From an uncultured Gammaproteobacteria bacterium (lineage in GTDB: Bacteria > Patescibacteriota > Microgenomatia > UBA12405), in the NCBI GenBank assembly GCA_964549165.1, contig CAZJUH010000001.1, positions 140,566 to 191,792 of the forward strand: a DNA stretch of 51,227 bases, in the 5' to 3' direction. The first letter of the stretch is position 1; each line of letters opens with the position of its first letter. The notes under the pieces are model-generated. The model was not told where the DNA came from, searched no databases, and saw only the letters and a list, made by a program, of their open reading frames with translations. A program made the translations under genes and the position numbers. Positions 33,883 through 50,434 of the stretch are shown here, in pieces.

Positions 33883-35425
33883 AAAGGAGGTGATCCATCC
33901 GCACCTTCCAGTACGGATACCTTGTTACGACTTAACCCTCATCGCTGGATTTACCTTAGTCCCGATAAATCGGGATATTGGGTACCCCCAACTTTGCTGA
34001 TTTGACGGGCAGTGTGTGCAAGAGGCGAGAACGTATTCACCGCACGCTGCTGATGTGCGATTACTACCAATTCCGGGTTCATGCAGGCGAGTTTCAGCCT
34101 GCAATCCCAACTGAGGGCTAGTTTAGGGATTAGCTCCACCTTGCGGTCTTGCAACCCTCTGTTATAGCCCATTGTAGGATGTGTGTAGCCCTGGATATAA
34201 GCATCATGATGACTTGACGTCGTCCCCTCCTTCCTCCTAACAAAATAATGCTAGGCAGTCTTCTGTGACACAATAACACAGAACGGGGGTTGCGCTCGTT
34301 ACCTCACTTAAGAGAACAACTCACGTCACGAGCTGACGATAGCCATGCAACAGCTGTGTACCACCCTCAAAGGATGTCCCGATTTCTCGGGATTTGCAGG
34401 TACATTTCAAACCCAGGTAAGGTTCATCGCTTTGTATCGAATTGAACCACATGCTCCACTGGTTGTGCGCCTCCCCGCCAATTCGTTTGAGTTTCGGCCT
34501 TGCGGCTATACTCCCCAGGCGATCCGTTTAACGCGTTTGCTAACATCCCTCCCTAATAAATTAAAGAAGAACTAACGGACAATGTTTACGGCTAGGACTA
34601 CTCAGGTCTCTAATCTGATTTGCTACCCTAGCTTTCGTCTCTGAACGTCAGTATGTACCTAGTTACCCGCCTTCGCGCTTGGTGTTCTTTTTAGTATCCA
34701 CGGATTTAACCCCTACACTAAAAATTCCAGTAACCCCGATACCACTCTAGTCTTTTAGTATCTTGCCCCTTTCTCCGATTGAGTCGGAGTCTTTGAAACA
34801 AGACTTAAAAAACCGTCTACAGACCCTTTACGCCCAATAAATCCGAGTAACGCTCGTAGCCTACGTATTACCGCGACTGCTGGCACGTAGTTAGTAGCTA
34901 CTTATTCTAGTGGCCTTCATGGCCGCTAAAAAGGAGTTTACAACCCTAGGGTCTTCATCCTCCACGCGGTGTCGCTGCGTCAGACTTTCGTCCATTGCGC
35001 AAAATTCCTAACTGCTGCCACCCGTAGGTGTATGGGCCGTGTCTCAGTCCCATTGTGCCGGACTCTCCGCTAAGAGCCGGTAACCGTCATTGCCTTGGTA
35101 AGCCGTTACCTTACCAACTAGCTGGTAGTAAATAGGCCGTTTTCGTAGTGACTTGCGTCTTTCACCCGTAGGCGTATGGGAAATTACCCCCTCTTTCGAG
35201 GAGCTATGTCCCGCTTCGAAGTACGTTCCTATTTTATACTCACCCGTTTGCCACTACCCTGCGCTCCGCACTGCGTTTGAGCTTCGGAATAGCAGGCTAT
35301 CCATATTTAAGGATCGCATGCGACTCCGTAGTTCCACCGCAAAGTGGAACGAAGGATCGTTCGACTTGCATGTCTTAGGCACACCGCCAGCGTTCACCCT
35401 GAGCCACGATCAAACTCTTAGTACA
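33883..35425 (-). rRNA. rrs: 16S rRNA, stand-alone, with enlarged V1 region
   Basis: AGAGTTTGATCGTGGCTCAG near the 5' end, GTGCCAGCAGTCGCGGTAA, AAGTCGTAACAAGG and 3' GGATCACCTCCTTT; ends approximate. Confidence 0.98.
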
Positions 35426-36640: not shown

Positions 36641-36905
36641 CTTCTGCCTATTATAACCGATTCTTACCCAAAATTCTTTATGTCCAGAGACTGTCGGTAG
36701 GTTGGAACCAATTCTTTGCTAACCTAATTTCCATCTACGAGACTCTTAAACCTATTATACCGGAAGAAAAATTAGCCTTGAGTTATATATAATAAGAATT
36801 ACCATTGGTGGAGTAGAACAATAGTAATTTCATATTTCGGGGTAATTGGTCTATATATTAACAGCAACAAACTGAATCAAATATGTGCCTATTTTGTCAT
36901 GTAGG

Positions 36906-36934
36906 TTGACAGATGGTTTCATGGTTGCTACTAT
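36906..36934 (+). promoter_or_regulatory. Sigma70 promoter of the retron operon
   Basis: TTGACA (36906-36911), 17-nt spacer, TG-C-TACTAT (36929-36934). Confidence 0.8.
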
Positions 36935-36940
36935 GATTAT

Positions 36941-37234
36941 GGAGACTCTACGAGTCGCACATTAAAATCCTTTAACACGGCAGATATTCCAACTTTCTAA
37001 ATGGTGCCTTTGGCACCGCAGGGGTTTATCCCCTGCTTTCTCCGTCGGGCTGCATCGTTACGATGATGAGTTAACGATTACTGTTACAGTAATCAGTTAT
37101 TCTTTACCTTACACGATGGCAGAGCGCTCCGCGCGAAAAAGTAATTAAGGGTTTAGGTTCAGTTTCCTTCCTATCAAGGCTAGGTCTGCTGATGGCACGG
37201 TGCAGCCATTTTTAGGGTTTGCACAGTTAAAGGA
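36941..37234 (+). ncRNA. Candidate retron ncRNA (msr-msd)
   Basis: 9-bp terminal inverted repeat TCCTTTAAC/GTTAAAGGA (36968-36976/37226-37234); hairpins at 37003-37017 and 37018-37036; 11-bp stem 37048-37058/37197-37207; directly upstream of a retron-type RT operon. Confidence 0.65.
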
Positions 37235-37245
37235 GGTGAGTTCAA

Positions 37246-37443
37246 TTGAATCACTTTAATTTTAAATGTGTCTCAACTTTGATAAATTCAAAGGTGAGAA
37301 ACGGGAAACTGAATTTAGATCAGGCTAAAGTCATAATCGGCCATGCAAAAGAAATCAAGCATGCTTTATCAACCAAGGATAACCAAAAGTTGGTCAAGGC
37401 AGTTGATAGATTCTGCAAATCGATATTTGAGTCCGATAGTTGA
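37246..37443 (+). CDS. Small helical protein, candidate retron effector
   Basis: TTG start 7 nt after a strong AGGAGGTG SD; amphipathic helical pattern; first ORF of the operon. Confidence 0.65.
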   Translation: MNHFNFKCVSTLINSKVRNGKLNLDQAKVIIGHAKEIKHALSTKDNQKLVKAVDRFCKSIFESDS

Positions 37444-37505
37444 TCCCCTTAATTTCTTTTTGTAAAAACCATTGGGTAAATGACTTTTACAAAAGGTAAA
37501 GATGT

Positions 37506-37802
37506 ATGAATTATTCCAAGACAATAAAAATTATCAGAGCTGCTATAGGCCTGTCTCAACAAGACTTCGCGTCACTAACTGAGATTGATCCTAGTTTAGT
37601 GTCCAGAATTGAATCCGGCCAAAGGTCACTGTCGGTGACCAATTTAAAAAAAATTTCAACAAAACTGTCAATTCCAGAGAGTTTGATGAAACTTCTTTCG
37701 AGTGACGAGACCGAACTAAAAGGGTTGACTAAAGACGAATACCAAAAAATGGCCGAAAGTTTACTTTCGCTTTTAATAAAAAAACAAAATGGGAGAAAGT
37801 GA
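37506..37802 (+). CDS. XRE-family helix-turn-helix protein
   Basis: IRAAIGLSQQDFA...IDPSLVSRIESGQR pattern; overlaps the RT start by 14 nt. Confidence 0.9.
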   Translation: MNYSKTIKIIRAAIGLSQQDFASLTEIDPSLVSRIESGQRSLSVTNLKKISTKLSIPESLMKLLSSDETELKGLTKDEYQKMAESLLSLLIKKQNGRK

Positions 37803-38685
37803 TTCCAGTGTGAAAAATGTTTTGTCTACGAGAAAACTCGCGAGTATTTTAAAGATCAACGTCGACGAGCTTAGAGCAGTTTCTGAAAATGCAAGCTCTT
37901 ATTACCGGCCGTTTATTAAGAAACTGCCAAAGCCTAGAGAAATTGATAACCCAACCGGTAGACTAAAGATCATCCAAAAGGCAATTGATGATAAGTTGCT
38001 AAAAAAAGTAGAGTTGCCGGAAACAGTTTTGGGAGGAGTTCCCGGGAAGTCGGTAAAGGACAATGCCATGTTTCATCTTGGTAAACCTGTGGTAGTGACC
38101 GTCGATTTGAAGAAGTGTTTCCCAAACACAAAAGACATTTCAGTATTCAAGTTATTTCGTAACTATTTCGGATATTCGACTGTAAATTCTTTATTACTGA
38201 TGAAACTAACAACGTTTAACGATCATGTGCCCCAAGGTTCACCGTGTAGCTCGTCACTGGTTAATCTTTGTCTCCTGGCTTTACATGAAGAGTTGCAAGC
38301 CTTCTCTGGGAAATATGGCTTCATGTGTACCGTTTGGGTAGACGATATAACAATATCCGGCGAAGGCGCTGAAAAACAGATTTCGGATGTGATTAGAATA
38401 ATAAAAAGGCATAAATACAACACAAGGTGTAAAAAAATTAAAGTAATGAGAGGTAGTGGAAGACAAGAGGTCACCGGAATAACTGTAAATAATTTAGTGT
38501 CTGTTCCAAAGAAGAAAATATCGGAAATAAAGAAGATTATCCATGACATTAGGGTAAAAAACCTTAACATGAATTCAAAAGAATATATTATGTTAAAAGG
38601 AAAAATGGGATTTGTAGGATATGTTAATCCTAAACAGTTCAATACATTAAATAAGTTTTTGCTCAAATGTGGGATAAAAGTCTAA
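37789..38685 (+). CDS. Retron-type reverse transcriptase
   Basis: REIDNP..RLKIIQ, region X NAMFH (NAxxH), DLKKCFP, PQGSPCS..LVN, WVDD, region Y VTG; 298 aa with no maturase or endonuclease domain. Confidence 0.92.
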   Translation: MGESDSSVKNVLSTRKLASILKINVDELRAVSENASSYYRPFIKKLPKPREIDNPTGRLKIIQKAIDDKLLKKVELPETVLGGVPGKSVKDNAMFHLGKPVVVTVDLKKCFPNTKDISVFKLFRNYFGYSTVNSLLLMKLTTFNDHVPQGSPCSSSLVNLCLLALHEELQAFSGKYGFMCTVWVDDITISGEGAEKQISDVIRIIKRHKYNTRCKKIKVMRGSGRQEVTGITVNNLVSVPKKKISEIKKIIHDIRVKNLNMNSKEYIMLKGKMGFVGYVNPKQFNTLNKFLLKCGIKV

Positions 38686-38712
38686 TAATTTTTGGGTGTA
38701 AAATTACCTAGT

Positions 38713-39387
38713 ATGGAAAACCCCGGAGAAAAAAGGTACGAAAAACAAATCATGTGTAAGGAATGCCAGCATCCAACATGGCATCGCGTTCTTAATGAAG
38801 CGAAAGGAGGTTGGGACGATGATGAATCAGGGATATGGGAGTCTAAAACTTTTTATTCTTTGCAGTGCTTGGGTTGCGATAATGTTTGCCTCGTCGTCCA
38901 CAGCATGTTTAGCGAAGATATTGGTGATGACGGGAATCCTGAATTAAACATTGCAATTTATCCCTCACCATATAAAAGTGACAGGGAACCCATCGAGAGA
39001 TTGCACCGTGTACCTAAAAATATCGGTTCAGTATATGAAGAAACAATAAAGGCTTTTAACGCTCATCTCATAATCTTAGCAGCCATCGGTGTCAGGTCAA
39101 CGATAGAGGCGATAGCAATTGACAAGGCTATTACCGCTAGAGGAATCAAAACTAAAATAGAAGCGATGAAAGGACAAGGAATTATTACCGAGGATGGCGC
39201 AAAATTATTACTTCTCGTAAAAGATATCGGGAATCTGGCTGCTCACGAGATCAAGAAACATCACCATGACGATCTCTCTTTGTGTCTTGACATCATTGAG
39301 GGTGTACTTATGGAACAGTATGTACTTCCAGAAGAAGCAAAGCGCACTAGGGAAATAATTGATGGTAGATGGGAAAGAGCGAGTTAG
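38713..39387 (+). CDS. Zinc-ribbon plus DUF4145 (HEPN-like) protein
   Basis: CKEC and CLGC pairs; YEE...A....AA...R..IE and GN.AAH motifs; start ATG 38713 (track starts at TTG 38692). Confidence 0.75.
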   Translation: MENPGEKRYEKQIMCKECQHPTWHRVLNEAKGGWDDDESGIWESKTFYSLQCLGCDNVCLVVHSMFSEDIGDDGNPELNIAIYPSPYKSDREPIERLHRVPKNIGSVYEETIKAFNAHLIILAAIGVRSTIEAIAIDKAITARGIKTKIEAMKGQGIITEDGAKLLLLVKDIGNLAAHEIKKHHHDDLSLCLDIIEGVLMEQYVLPEEAKRTREIIDGRWERAS

Positions 39388-39397
39388 AAAAAACTAT

Positions 39398-40231
39398 TTA
39401 CCTCGGAAATGTTGGTGGATTTGATACTTGGACAACTGGTTCGGTCTTGAGCATTTGCTGTAGTTCTGGATAGTCTAAGATTTCCGTTACAAGTGAGGTA
39501 GATTGAACAATACCAAGGCCAGCATTCTCCTGAAATTGGATCCTGGATTGTCCCGTTCTAGTGCTAACAGCATCCTCAATGTAGTTGAGATTGTCGCTAA
39601 TTATACCCAATAACTTTAATCCACGTCCGGAGCCAATTGAAAACGAAGATTGGCTGAATGAAGCGATGGTGGGTCTGTAAAAAACCGGACTACCACTACT
39701 GCCCGGGTAAACATTTGCGTCTATTAGGAATGTCTTATTATTCAATTTTGCCGAAACTAATCCGGCCCTAATCAATGGCGTTGATTTGTTCTCATTTGAA
39801 ACCCCGAGACCCAATGGGTATCCTAGAAAAAATACATCTTCGCCCAATGGTAGATTTTCAAAATTCTCAAATAAGTTCTGGCTCACTAACTTGATATCGT
39901 CTTCATTTTGCTTGATTGCGATAGGTGTTACAGCAATATCTACATTTTGATCGTGATGAAAAACCCATTTTAAGCCGAACTCGCGGTGTACTTGTTCAAT
40001 ACTTCTTTGCTCTTTTCCCCCATCAAGTCTATTTAAGATTACGTTTAGTCCTTTAAACTCTTCTTTTGTGTACGGATTAACCACAATGTGTCGACATGTT
40101 ACAAGAACAAAGTTTTCTTTGTAGTTGATCAAAACACCGGTACCGTGGGGTTGTAGCACACTATTATTGTTTGGTAGTTCAAACAACACTACTGTCTTGA
40201 GAAACTCTTCGTTTAACCAATTTGCAATCAT
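39398..40231 (-). CDS. Trypsin-like serine protease
   Basis: VTCRHIV (His), VDIAV (Asp), FLGYP and PGSSGSPVF (Ser) motifs. Confidence 0.85.
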   Translation of the reverse strand: MIANWLNEEFLKTVVLFELPNNNSVLQPHGTGVLINYKENFVLVTCRHIVVNPYTKEEFKGLNVILNRLDGGKEQRSIEQVHREFGLKWVFHHDQNVDIAVTPIAIKQNEDDIKLVSQNLFENFENLPLGEDVFFLGYPLGLGVSNENKSTPLIRAGLVSAKLNNKTFLIDANVYPGSSGSPVFYRPTIASFSQSSFSIGSGRGLKLLGIISDNLNYIEDAVSTRTGQSRIQFQENAGLGIVQSTSLVTEILDYPELQQMLKTEPVVQVSNPPTFPR

Positions 40232-48721: not shown

Positions 48722-49292
48722 AAAACGTCTTCGCATTGCCTTTTTTGGCGATGCTGATGTCAAAAAAAGAAGCCCTAGTTTTATTGATGCTTATGATACT
48801 GCTCAGCTTTTAAGTAAAAATAACTTTACCATTATCAATGGTGGTGGGCCGGGCATTATGCTGGCCTCAACCCTTGGGGCAGTTTCCGTACATGGCCGAG
48901 TCGAAGCTGTAGTGATAAATCCAAAAAATCAACCAACTACTCGTTACGAAGGCCAGTATCCTGAAAATATTTCTCAGGTTAAACGAATCTATTTTTTAAA
49001 ATCTTACCAGGGCAGGCTAAATAAATTGATTAAACTCGCCAGTGCTTACGTTATTTTTTACGGTGGCACCGGCACTCTCACCGAAATGTCTTTTGTCTGG
49101 AGCGAAGCCAAATTTGCCTATCCTCGTCAAAAACCCATCATTTTTTATGGCAAAAAATGGCAAAAAATTATCAAGACCATTACCTCAGAATTAAAGTTCG
49201 AAAAAATTGAAAAACAAATCTGCTATTTTGTCGACAAACCCGAGCAGGTATTGGAAATTATCAGGACATATTCCAAATTAAAAATAAAATAA
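48705..49292 (+). CDS. LOG/SLOG family protein
   Basis: IINGGGPGIM and GGTGTL.E motifs. Confidence 0.8.
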   Translation: MKKKIKKRLRIAFFGDADVKKRSPSFIDAYDTAQLLSKNNFTIINGGGPGIMLASTLGAVSVHGRVEAVVINPKNQPTTRYEGQYPENISQVKRIYFLKSYQGRLNKLIKLASAYVIFYGGTGTLTEMSFVWSEAKFAYPRQKPIIFYGKKWQKIIKTITSELKFEKIEKQICYFVDKPEQVLEIIRTYSKLKIK

Positions 49293-49348
49293 TTTTTTAA
49301 AAAATATTTCCCTCCATTTTGAAGGGGGGGTAGGGTGGGTTTTGTTTT

Positions 49349-50434
49349 TTACTCCAGATAGTCCTGCAATTTTTTTCTTCGGCTTGGGTGTCTTAATTTT
49401 CTTAAAGCTTTAGCTTCAATTTGTCGAATTCTCTCTCTGGTCACATTAAATATTTTCCCTACTTCTTCGAGTGTTTTTGGAGTTTCTCCCATCAGTCCAA
49501 AGCGCAGTGATAGTACCTTGGCTTCTCTTTCGTCAAGGCTTTCAAGCACTTCTTCAATCGATTCCCGAAGCAATTCTTTAGAGGTTTCTTCATAAGGGCT
49601 TGGCTGGGTTAAATCCTCAATAAAATCTCCGAGAAATGAATCCTCATCATCGCCAACAGGAGTAGCGAGAGAGGTTGTATCTTGAGAAATTCGGTATATT
49701 TCTTCCACTTTTTCCACGGTTATTCCAACTTCCGCCGCAATTTCTTCAATGGTCGGTTCTCGTCCCAGTCTTTGGGTCAGAGCTCTCGTCGCTTTGTAAA
49801 CTTTATTAATTGTTTCGACCATGTGAACTGGGATTCTAATAGTTTTAGCCTGATCGGCAATTGCTCGGGTAATGGCCTGTCTTATCCACCAGGTAGCATA
49901 GGTTGAAAATTTAAAACCTCGTTTCCAATCAAATTTTTCCACCGCTCTCATTAGTCCCTGATTTCCTTCCTGAACAAGATCGAGAAAGGTCAAACCCCTC
50001 CCAATATATTTTTTGGCAATTGACACCACCAGCCTTAAATTAGCATTGATTAAATGGGCCCTTGCCTCACCCGAGCCTTTTTCAATCGCTTTGGCCAGCT
50101 CTACTTCTTTTTCAAAATTTATCAAATCAATTTTCCCAATTTCCTTTAAATACATTCGCACTGAGTCCATGCTATTTTTTTGAGATAAAAGTGCCAAAAG
50201 ATCGGCACTACTCAGTTTTCCTTTTTCAGAATCAATTATCTCTCTGGACTCGACTTTATCAAAAATGTCTATCCCTTTATCAAAGAGATAATCAAAAAGT
50301 TGATCAATTTGTTCAATAAATTTTTCCGGTTCAGGGATTAGAGCTAAAATTTCATCATTGGTTAGATATCGGAGTTTCTTTGCCTGAGCCACTAACTTAG
50401 TTTTTATTTGAGAAATATTTATTGTTGCGGCCAT
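49349..50434 (-). CDS. rpoD: Primary RNA polymerase sigma factor
   Basis: [45 protein letters not shown] and [16 protein letters not shown] motifs. Confidence 0.97.

Follow-up and report, generated by a model that had tools for sequence, protein, structure and literature searches.

A candidate type VI retron hybrid RNA with two predicted, mutually exclusive folds in a Candidatus Shapirobacteria genome

Introduction

What kind of RNA is encoded just upstream of the retron reverse transcriptase gene of a Candidatus (Ca.) Shapirobacteria genome, and in what way might that RNA be tied to the genes which follow it? The question was raised by a preliminary description of a 51,227-nucleotide stretch of that genome, the whole of which is here called ‘the window’. 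That description, made from the letters alone, had pointed to positions 36941 to 37234 as a candidate msr-msd RNA, i.e., a retron non-coding RNA, displaying mutually exclusive pairings. Ca. Shapirobacteria, along with Ca. Levybacteria, belong to the candidate-phyla radiation (CPR).

Type VI retrons are, in terms of their control, the least understood of the retron classes. Retron-Vpa2 and Retron-Sen3 are the only such systems that have been studied, both are from Gammaproteobacteria, and their mechanisms are unlike. [quoted passage not shown] With Retron-Sen3, by contrast, ssDNA is constitutive and control is post-translational (Garcia-Rodriguez et al., 10.64898/2026.04.27.721009). Translational control is not, that is, universal among type VI retrons.

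The reading that we consider likely is that 36941 to 37234 represents the 5' two-thirds of a type VI hybrid RNA, one that can take on two folds and which, by analogy with Retron-Vpa2, would be opened through the action of the reverse transcriptase (RT).

The Locus and Its Genes

Directly 3' of the leader, and all on the same strand, are found genes in the order SP, HTH, and then RT, which is the type VI retron order. The features of the leader's edges and of these genes are as follows.

36906 to 36934, plus strand: sigma-70-like promoter (TTGACA, 17 nt, TACTAT), with TG preceding the second hexamer
37229 to 37237, plus strand: Shine-Dalgarno sequence (SD) of SP, AAGGAGGTG, recognized by sequence and overlapped by the 3' arm of helix P1 (37226 to 37234)
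37246 to 37443, plus strand: SP open reading frame, 65 aa, TTG start, a candidate toxin, recognized by a family HMM and preceded by its SD
37506 to 37802, plus strand: HTH protein, 98 aa (PADLOC HTH_VI, 2.5e-18; Pfam HTH_3, 6e-12)
37789 to 38685, plus strand: retron reverse transcriptase, 298 aa (PADLOC RT_VI, 2e-68; Pfam RVT_1)

Among 43 PADLOC RT models, RT_VI was the top match to the RT (228.7 bits, residues 8 to 285), followed by RT_III-A (1.6e-54), and the NAxxH, VDD, and VTG motifs are without variation among 10 RT homologs. The RT start at 37789 results in a 14-nt overlap with the HTH gene, while the SP start codon, TTG in the window, is an ATG at the aligned position in L004 and L006, two relatives that are roughly 70% identical. 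Type VI here refers to the class of that name in the Mestre 2020 classification, equivalently retron VI of PADLOC. Its gene-level hallmarks are present, i.e., an RT of the corresponding clade, a Cro/C1-type HTH gene that is upstream of or overlaps the RT gene, and an SP gene upstream of that for HTH. As read from its sequence, the locus thus is a type VI retron, that is, a putative phage-defence operon, in a Ca. Shapirobacteria genome. With SP, HTH_VI, and RT_VI found directly downstream, the earlier designation of the leader as a retron non-coding RNA was correct.

No open reading frame of at least 50 aa overlaps 36941 to 37234 on either strand. The promoter at 36906 to 36934 is the single consensus promoter and predicts that transcription begins at about 36941, also the point at which the preliminary description began its RNA. 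TTGACA-17-TAnnnT is equally placed ahead of the 5' hairpin in L010, L011, L014, and L071. Before SP, a terminator-like match is seen just once, at a hairpin within the template (37076 to 37094). Pairings that are conserved across the boundary between non-coding RNA and coding sequence (CDS), as considered below, would imply a single RNA molecule, and we infer that one transcript, starting at about 36941, carries template RNA and SP mRNA and then the HTH and RT genes. An RNA ending at 37234, as was earlier suggested, stops short, since the structured RNA is predicted to run on to about 37500.

The retron cassette behaves as a movable unit. The 2.06 kb from 36680 to 38738 are 91% identical to a metagenomic contig (L001) in which the cassette is set in another neighbourhood. 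The neighbouring RecF of the window is 79 to 87% identical to RecF from three Ca. Shapirobacteria metagenome-assembled genomes, and in these no retron cassette is seen beside recF, with homology ending near 36686.

Beginning 7 nt past the RT stop codon, at 38692 to 39387 (plus strand), is a gene for a 231-aa protein that has an N-terminal CxxC...CxxC and a DUF4145 domain. A DUF4145 gene is found 3' of RT also in L004, the RT of which is 71% identical. It is missing from L001 (RT 93% identical), where there are instead an HNH-domain gene, a small open reading frame, and a YaaC-domain gene. The DUF4145 gene may be an accessory gene or it may be mere neighbouring cargo. Next to it, at 39398 to 40231 (minus strand), is encoded a trypsin-like peptidase (Pfam Trypsin_2) with a match (2.1e-26) to PDC-S45, a candidate defence family in PADLOC, and peptidase along with retron suggest a small defence island beside recF. 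Also adjoining recF, at 33883 to 35425 (minus strand), is a complete 16S rRNA gene. The 51-kb window has no 23S rRNA gene anywhere, so that the rRNA genes apparently are unlinked.

Relatives and Their Comparison

A scan of genome contigs using the single RT protein found no relatives, so that alignment-based scans were needed. Close RT relatives are few (14 proteins at E <= 1e-20). Contigs of RT relatives, along with genomes and metagenomes searched with alignments, yielded 129 loci altogether. An SP-family HMM places SP upstream of HTH and RT in about 28 distinct loci, with a strong SD in each case. These SP-bearing loci span Patescibacteria, Acidobacteriota, Binatia, and other groups. The leader itself can be divided as follows, going from 5' to 3'.

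36944 to 36956, plus strand: stem-loop P0, GACTC-TAC-GAGTC (5 bp), then GCAC and a T/A-rich linker, supported by covariation
37003 to 37008 with 37012 to 37017, and 37018 to 37024 with 37030 to 37036, plus strand: two msr-like hairpins, supported by covariance model R1
37048 to 37135, plus strand: variable middle, a candidate msd interior
37136 to 37199, plus strand: conserved 3' block, consisting of inverted repeat IR1, an arm that pairs with CDS, a CCTT/AAGG hairpin, the 3' arm of helix P2, and an ACGG motif

Identity to L004 and L006 is 75% over the 5' module and 69% over the RT gene. It is only 39%, with indels, over the middle, and then rises to 88% over the block, reaching 97% at 37160 to 37189. 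What the preliminary description viewed as ‘msd’ thus has a variable segment first and, behind it, the best conserved element that the locus contains. In eight closer sequences, P0 and the SP start are 290 to 319 nt apart.

HMMs of the 5' module that used sequence only did not reach past their seed set. MAFFT, furthermore, misplaces hairpins in distant members, making RNAalifold uninformative on those alignments. Covariance model R1, for which four close sequences were used, detects L010, L011, L017, and L014 at E of 0.011 to 1.2, and it misaligns some hairpins and misses L056, L071, and GC-rich members. Given these limits of R1, long-range helices were assessed instead by comparing cognate with non-cognate duplex energies. 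That is, the 5' window of each lineage was paired with its own 3' window and with those of others, using an identical optimal-duplex search throughout. Some of the lineages are interrelated, which weakens rather than inflates the cognate signal. R1 additionally gives a weak match within the window at 49264 to 49383 (plus strand; 10.4 bits, E 7.7), which is probably chance.

The 5' Module and the Variable Middle

RNAfold of 36941 to 37240 yields -98.9 kcal/mol, compared with -79.4 +/- 4.6 kcal/mol for 200 dinucleotide shuffles (z -4.26, with none as good), and that minimum-energy fold holds all of the helices listed in the preliminary description. Searching the region against Rfam gave no match at the gathering threshold and only chance-level ones at E up to 5. 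Stem-loop P0 is equivalently anchored in 13 lineages but with differing pairs, e.g., AACTC/GAGTT, AACCA/TGGTT, AGTCT/AGACT, and CACAC/GTGTG, with double changes at four of its five pairs, and it is followed in relatives by GCxC and then a T/A-rich linker.

The two hairpins that had been described as msr-like, GGTGCC-TTT-GGCACC (37003 to 37017) and GCAGGGG-TTTAT-CCCCTGC (37018 to 37036), are indeed present and covary in homologs, relatives having either two or three such hairpins. A covariance model of homologous loci had been named as one means of checking on the RNA, and covariation is what R1 finds in these 5' hairpins. R1 places the 5' module correctly in L010, L011, L017, and L014. On its alignment, which is model-fitted and favours structure, 95.9% of cells are paired versus 75.9% in shuffles. 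Double changes are seen at 14 of 18 pairs, a number matched in 0 of 500 shuffles.

The hairpin GATTACTG-TTA-CAGTAATC of the variable middle is present at 37076 to 37094, as had been noted, but by alignment it is not kept. Its distribution is patchy: CGATTACTG...CAGTAATC is found near-unchanged in L010, the RT of which is 48% identical (at about 266 to 288; CGATTACT-AGGGC-AGTAAT), while L004 lacks the hairpin through deletion and in L006 it has been replaced, their RTs being about 70% identical. The alternative partners that had been proposed for CATCGT (37053 to 37058), namely ACGATG at 37060 to 37065 and at 37113 to 37118, both exist, and ACGATG occurring twice in the leader has a P of 0.002 in shuffles. 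The 6-bp pairing with the copy at 37060 would require, however, a 1-nt loop, so that only CATCG-TTA-CGATG (5 bp, 37053 to 37065) is sterically possible. This local hairpin displays three double changes in L004. Pairing with the copy at 37113 was rejected, having an ensemble probability of 0.06 and a partner that is not retained in L004 and L006.

A Closed Fold

Three helices make up the closed fold.

36968 to 36976, plus strand: 5' arm of P1, an anti-SD strand, TCCTTTAAC, pairing with GTTAAAGGA at 37226 to 37234 (-9.4 kcal/mol)
36978 to 36985, plus strand: 5' arm of P2, CGGCAGAT, pairing with GTCTGCTG at 37184 to 37191 and including G36979 and G36980
37200 to 37224, plus strand: hairpin P3, GTGCA with TGCAC, beginning at the ACGG motif and found with differing sequences in most lineages read

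P3 sits between the 3' arms of P2 and P1, giving a predicted three-way junction which encloses both the two msr-like hairpins and the variable middle. P2 is 100% paired in near relatives, and its strands are swapped in L010 (GTCTGC with GCAGAC). Its lineage-specific complementarity, as measured in windows that here and in the other duplex tests were chosen by the analysts, has a z of -6.9, a value that no derangement retained out of 20,000 permutations matched.

Comparative support for P1 is modest, consisting of two double changes in near relatives along with a cognate test giving a z of -2.3 (p 0.013). Position controls in this P1/P2 testing were null. Every P1 that was found overlies part of the SD, with its register sliding between lineages, which fits with selection for SD hiding rather than for a fixed helix. 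L014 has no clear P1. The repeat TCCTTTAAC/GTTAAAGGA, earlier described as closing the RNA, is present and does pair, but it is an anti-SD stem that lies over the SP ribosome-binding site.

An Extended Fold

A repeat search over 36900 to 37520 revealed two further pairings, these reaching from the conserved block into and past the SP gene. Together with two hairpins, they involve the following features.

37136 to 37151, plus strand: IR1, pairing with IR2
37446 to 37461, plus strand: IR2, CCCTTAATTTCTTTTT, 16 nt located just past the SP stop codon and 94% complementary to IR1 (15/16)
37221 to 37243 with 37248 to 37271, plus strand: SD hairpin, enclosing SD and start codon, as seen in the full-length minimum-energy fold
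37456 to 37496, plus strand: SP-HTH intergenic hairpin, an inverted repeat with its 3' arm over the likely HTH SD

In near relatives, three double changes from A-U to G-C are seen in the IR1-IR2 pairing. Positions 37158 to 37167 of the block are perfectly complementary to 37304 to 37313 of SP, the extended pairing being 37152 to 37168 with 37303 to 37319 (-19.9 kcal/mol). That pairing of block with CDS is 97% paired in near relatives, with changes that are only G-U-compatible. In cognate tests, block with IR2 gave z of -4.9 (10 lineages) and -6.6 (22 lineages), and -3.5 (p 2e-4) for the 12 lineages outside of the set from which the hypothesis was formed. For block with CDS the corresponding values were -5.0, -6.3, and -4.65. 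SD with early CDS gave -3.2 (p 0.001; 10 lineages) and -3.16 (p 0.0013; 22 lineages). Position controls were mostly null, the exception being block with the rest of the CDS (22 lineages; z -1.87, p 0.035).

The fold of 36941 to 37510 is built on IR1-IR2, block-CDS, and the SD hairpin, and has an energy of -176.3 kcal/mol versus -166.0 kcal/mol with P1, P2, and P3 enforced, although at 570 nt such thermodynamic predictions are indicative only. Among relatives, some of the full-length minimum-energy folds are extended and some are closed. The SP ribosome-binding site is hidden in closed and extended folds alike. What comparison across lineages predicts is a closed fold and an extended one that exclude each other, with comparative support for both. 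Mutually exclusive pairings are thus supported, as was initially proposed, but the set in question is a different one, i.e., P1, P2, and P3 versus IR1-IR2, block-CDS, and the SD hairpin.

A hairpin of 10 to 20 bp between SP and HTH is seen in 10 of 10 lineages (the window, L004, L010, L011, L014, L017, L056, L071, L058, and L095), with sequences that differ, and in several of these its 3' arm lies over the likely HTH SD. As the 5' arm of this hairpin overlaps IR2 in the window, hairpin and IR1-IR2 compete there. A match to the HDV-F-prausnitzii ribozyme at 37268 to 37335 (plus strand), inside the SP CDS, was set aside as probably chance, scoring 22.1 bits versus a cut-off of 44 and being absent from eight relatives.

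Direct Repeats

The block and the loop side of P3 share a direct repeat, AGGGTTT, located at 37148 to 37154 and 37214 to 37220. Across 19 lineages, the longest word shared between the block and the stretch 22 to 44 nt before the SP start averages 5.89 for cognate combinations versus 4.94 otherwise (z 4.45, p < 1e-4), with three controls null. It is not the sequence of the direct repeat that is conserved across lineages but instead the relative positions. Significance was seen with this narrow test; a broader duplex test, of block cDNA versus the region from P3 to SD, was not significant.

Alternative Readings

Were the leader a canonical msr-msd, then P1 would be the pairing of a1 with a2, the branching G would be 36979 or 36980, an 11-bp stem (GGCTGCATCGT at 37048 to 37058 with ACGGTGCAGCC at 37197 to 37207) would close an msd of about 160 nt (37048 to 37207), and overlap with the SD would be incidental. 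That stem, earlier described as msd-like, is present in the window, with one G-U and enclosing 138 nt. It is the stablest helix of the isolated leader (-19.3 kcal/mol, ensemble probability 0.86), a leader for which folds with this stem (-99.4 kcal/mol) and with P2 plus P3 (-98.6 kcal/mol) are nearly isoenergetic, and its inner 6 bp persist in L004 and L006 by way of G-U-compatible changes. The stem as a whole nevertheless is not kept in relatives: it has no double changes, L004 and L006 cannot form 4 of its 11 pairs, and the family-wide test yields a z of -0.33, leading us to reject it as a family feature. It also conflicts with two conserved helices, crossing P2 while using the 5' arm of P3 (which its own 3' arm overlaps), and like P1 and P2 has a probability near 0 in the ensemble of the full transcript (36941 to 37510). 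Concerning the branch point, a G does occur 1 to 6 nt past the 5' arm of P1 in the lineages read, and G36980 lies within AGC in L001, L004, and L006, a context which we take to resemble canonical branch sites. G36979, on the other hand, is an A in those same three relatives, while G36980 is conserved no further than near relatives, and P2 pairs it. Behind neither of the long-range 5' arms is there a conserved unpaired G, that of P2 having no G after it at all, so the priming site cannot be placed, nor can the previously suggested branch point be assigned by conservation. With in addition no Rfam msr match, and with P1 covering part of the SD in every lineage that has P1, we view a canonical msr-msd as improbable.

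Still less probable, we would say, is that the RNA serves solely as a translational leader, i.e., as a riboregulator for SP-HTH-RT, with the template found elsewhere or unused. It is the case that the SD is hidden in both folds, that the strongest conserved pairings involve SP mRNA, and that a census, to the extent that it is cited in the Sen3 preprint, failed to detect ssDNA for six type VI retrons expressed in E. coli, one of these retrons being from Ca. Levybacteria (via 10.64898/2026.04.27.721009). Against this, in both Vpa2 and Sen3 the corresponding upstream region gives rise to RT-dependent DNA, the msr-like hairpins, closing stems, and variable middle look retron-like, and direct repeats that are lineage-specific make sense solely if a DNA copy of the block is made. 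A functionless chance structure in AT-rich intergenic DNA, lastly, deserves next to no credence. Short stems generally are easy to find in such DNA, and nothing else argues for chance, whereas the fold z of -4.3, a block that is better conserved than the RT gene, and covariation along with cognate-specific complementarity in up to 22 lineages all argue against it.

A Possible Mechanism

The type VI hybrid RNA that we favour could be expected, by analogy with Retron-Vpa2, to function as follows. The RT would copy the template, the conserved block included. The resulting DNA would bear AAACCCT, which is complementary to AGGGUUU (37214 to 37220) beside the SD hairpin. That pairing, combined with the block being lost or masked, would then open the RNA, allowing the candidate toxin SP to be translated during phage infection. 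Opening could come about by two routes, possibly in combination: pairing of the repeat near the SD hairpin, or instead removal or masking of the block that holds the SP mRNA. The earlier suggestion that refolding is tied to reverse transcription is consistent, by analogy, with the published work on Retron-Vpa2.

A more ambitious proposal, and one that we consider doubtful, is that template and toxin mRNA form a single bistable switch by which reverse transcription turns the toxin on and HTH off in one step. Consumption or masking of the block, that is, would unfold the toxin mRNA and at the same time let the HTH hairpin close. If true, then the novelty would lie in HTH translation being controlled reciprocally as well as in template-to-CDS pairing serving as a lock on reverse transcription, though such a switch has in part been sketched already in the Sen3 and Vpa2 preprints.

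Comparison with Known Systems

In comparison with canonical msr-msd RNAs (Ec86/Eco1), the RNA considered here similarly lies upstream of a retron RT, is closed by terminal inverted repeats, and has msr-like hairpins followed by a variable template region. It differs in that the closing stem would double as an SD sequester, in having one more long-range helix and also an inserted hairpin, which give a three-way junction, in lacking an identifiable conserved branching G as well as an Rfam match, and in having a template that is predicted to pair with downstream coding sequence.

[quoted passage not shown] Unlike with Retron-Vpa2, where the repeat sequence is conserved among relatives, that sequence is not conserved across lineages here. 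IR1 here, in addition, is located within the template, and the candidate template is about 145 to 190 nt versus 63 to 86 nt for Vpa2 msDNA.

Shared with Retron-Sen3 and cl2075 are the SP-HTH-RT order, an RNA with structure that lies no more than about 300 nt from the SP start, a 5' stem-loop (P0), inverted repeats at the ends whose basal stem contains the SP RBS (P1), a long internal domain the centre of which is not conserved, an IR1 in the 3' part of that domain which pairs with an IR2 past the SP stop, and an alternative conformation that re-pairs the RBS. The host differs, being Ca. Shapirobacteria (Patescibacteria/CPR) rather than Proteobacteria, and covariation of IR1 with IR2 is clear here while not significant in cl2075 (10.64898/2026.04.27.721009).

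Feature for feature, the predicted RNA of this locus thus matches the Retron-Vpa2 and Retron-Sen3 RNAs of the 2025-2026 preprints. This is not a new kind of system. The locus instead carries the type VI RNA architecture into a CPR bacterium, and its diverse relatives provide clear comparative support for the two competing folds, IR1-IR2 covariation included. The outcome is a set of defined helices that can be mutated in studying how reverse transcription may be coupled to toxin translation.
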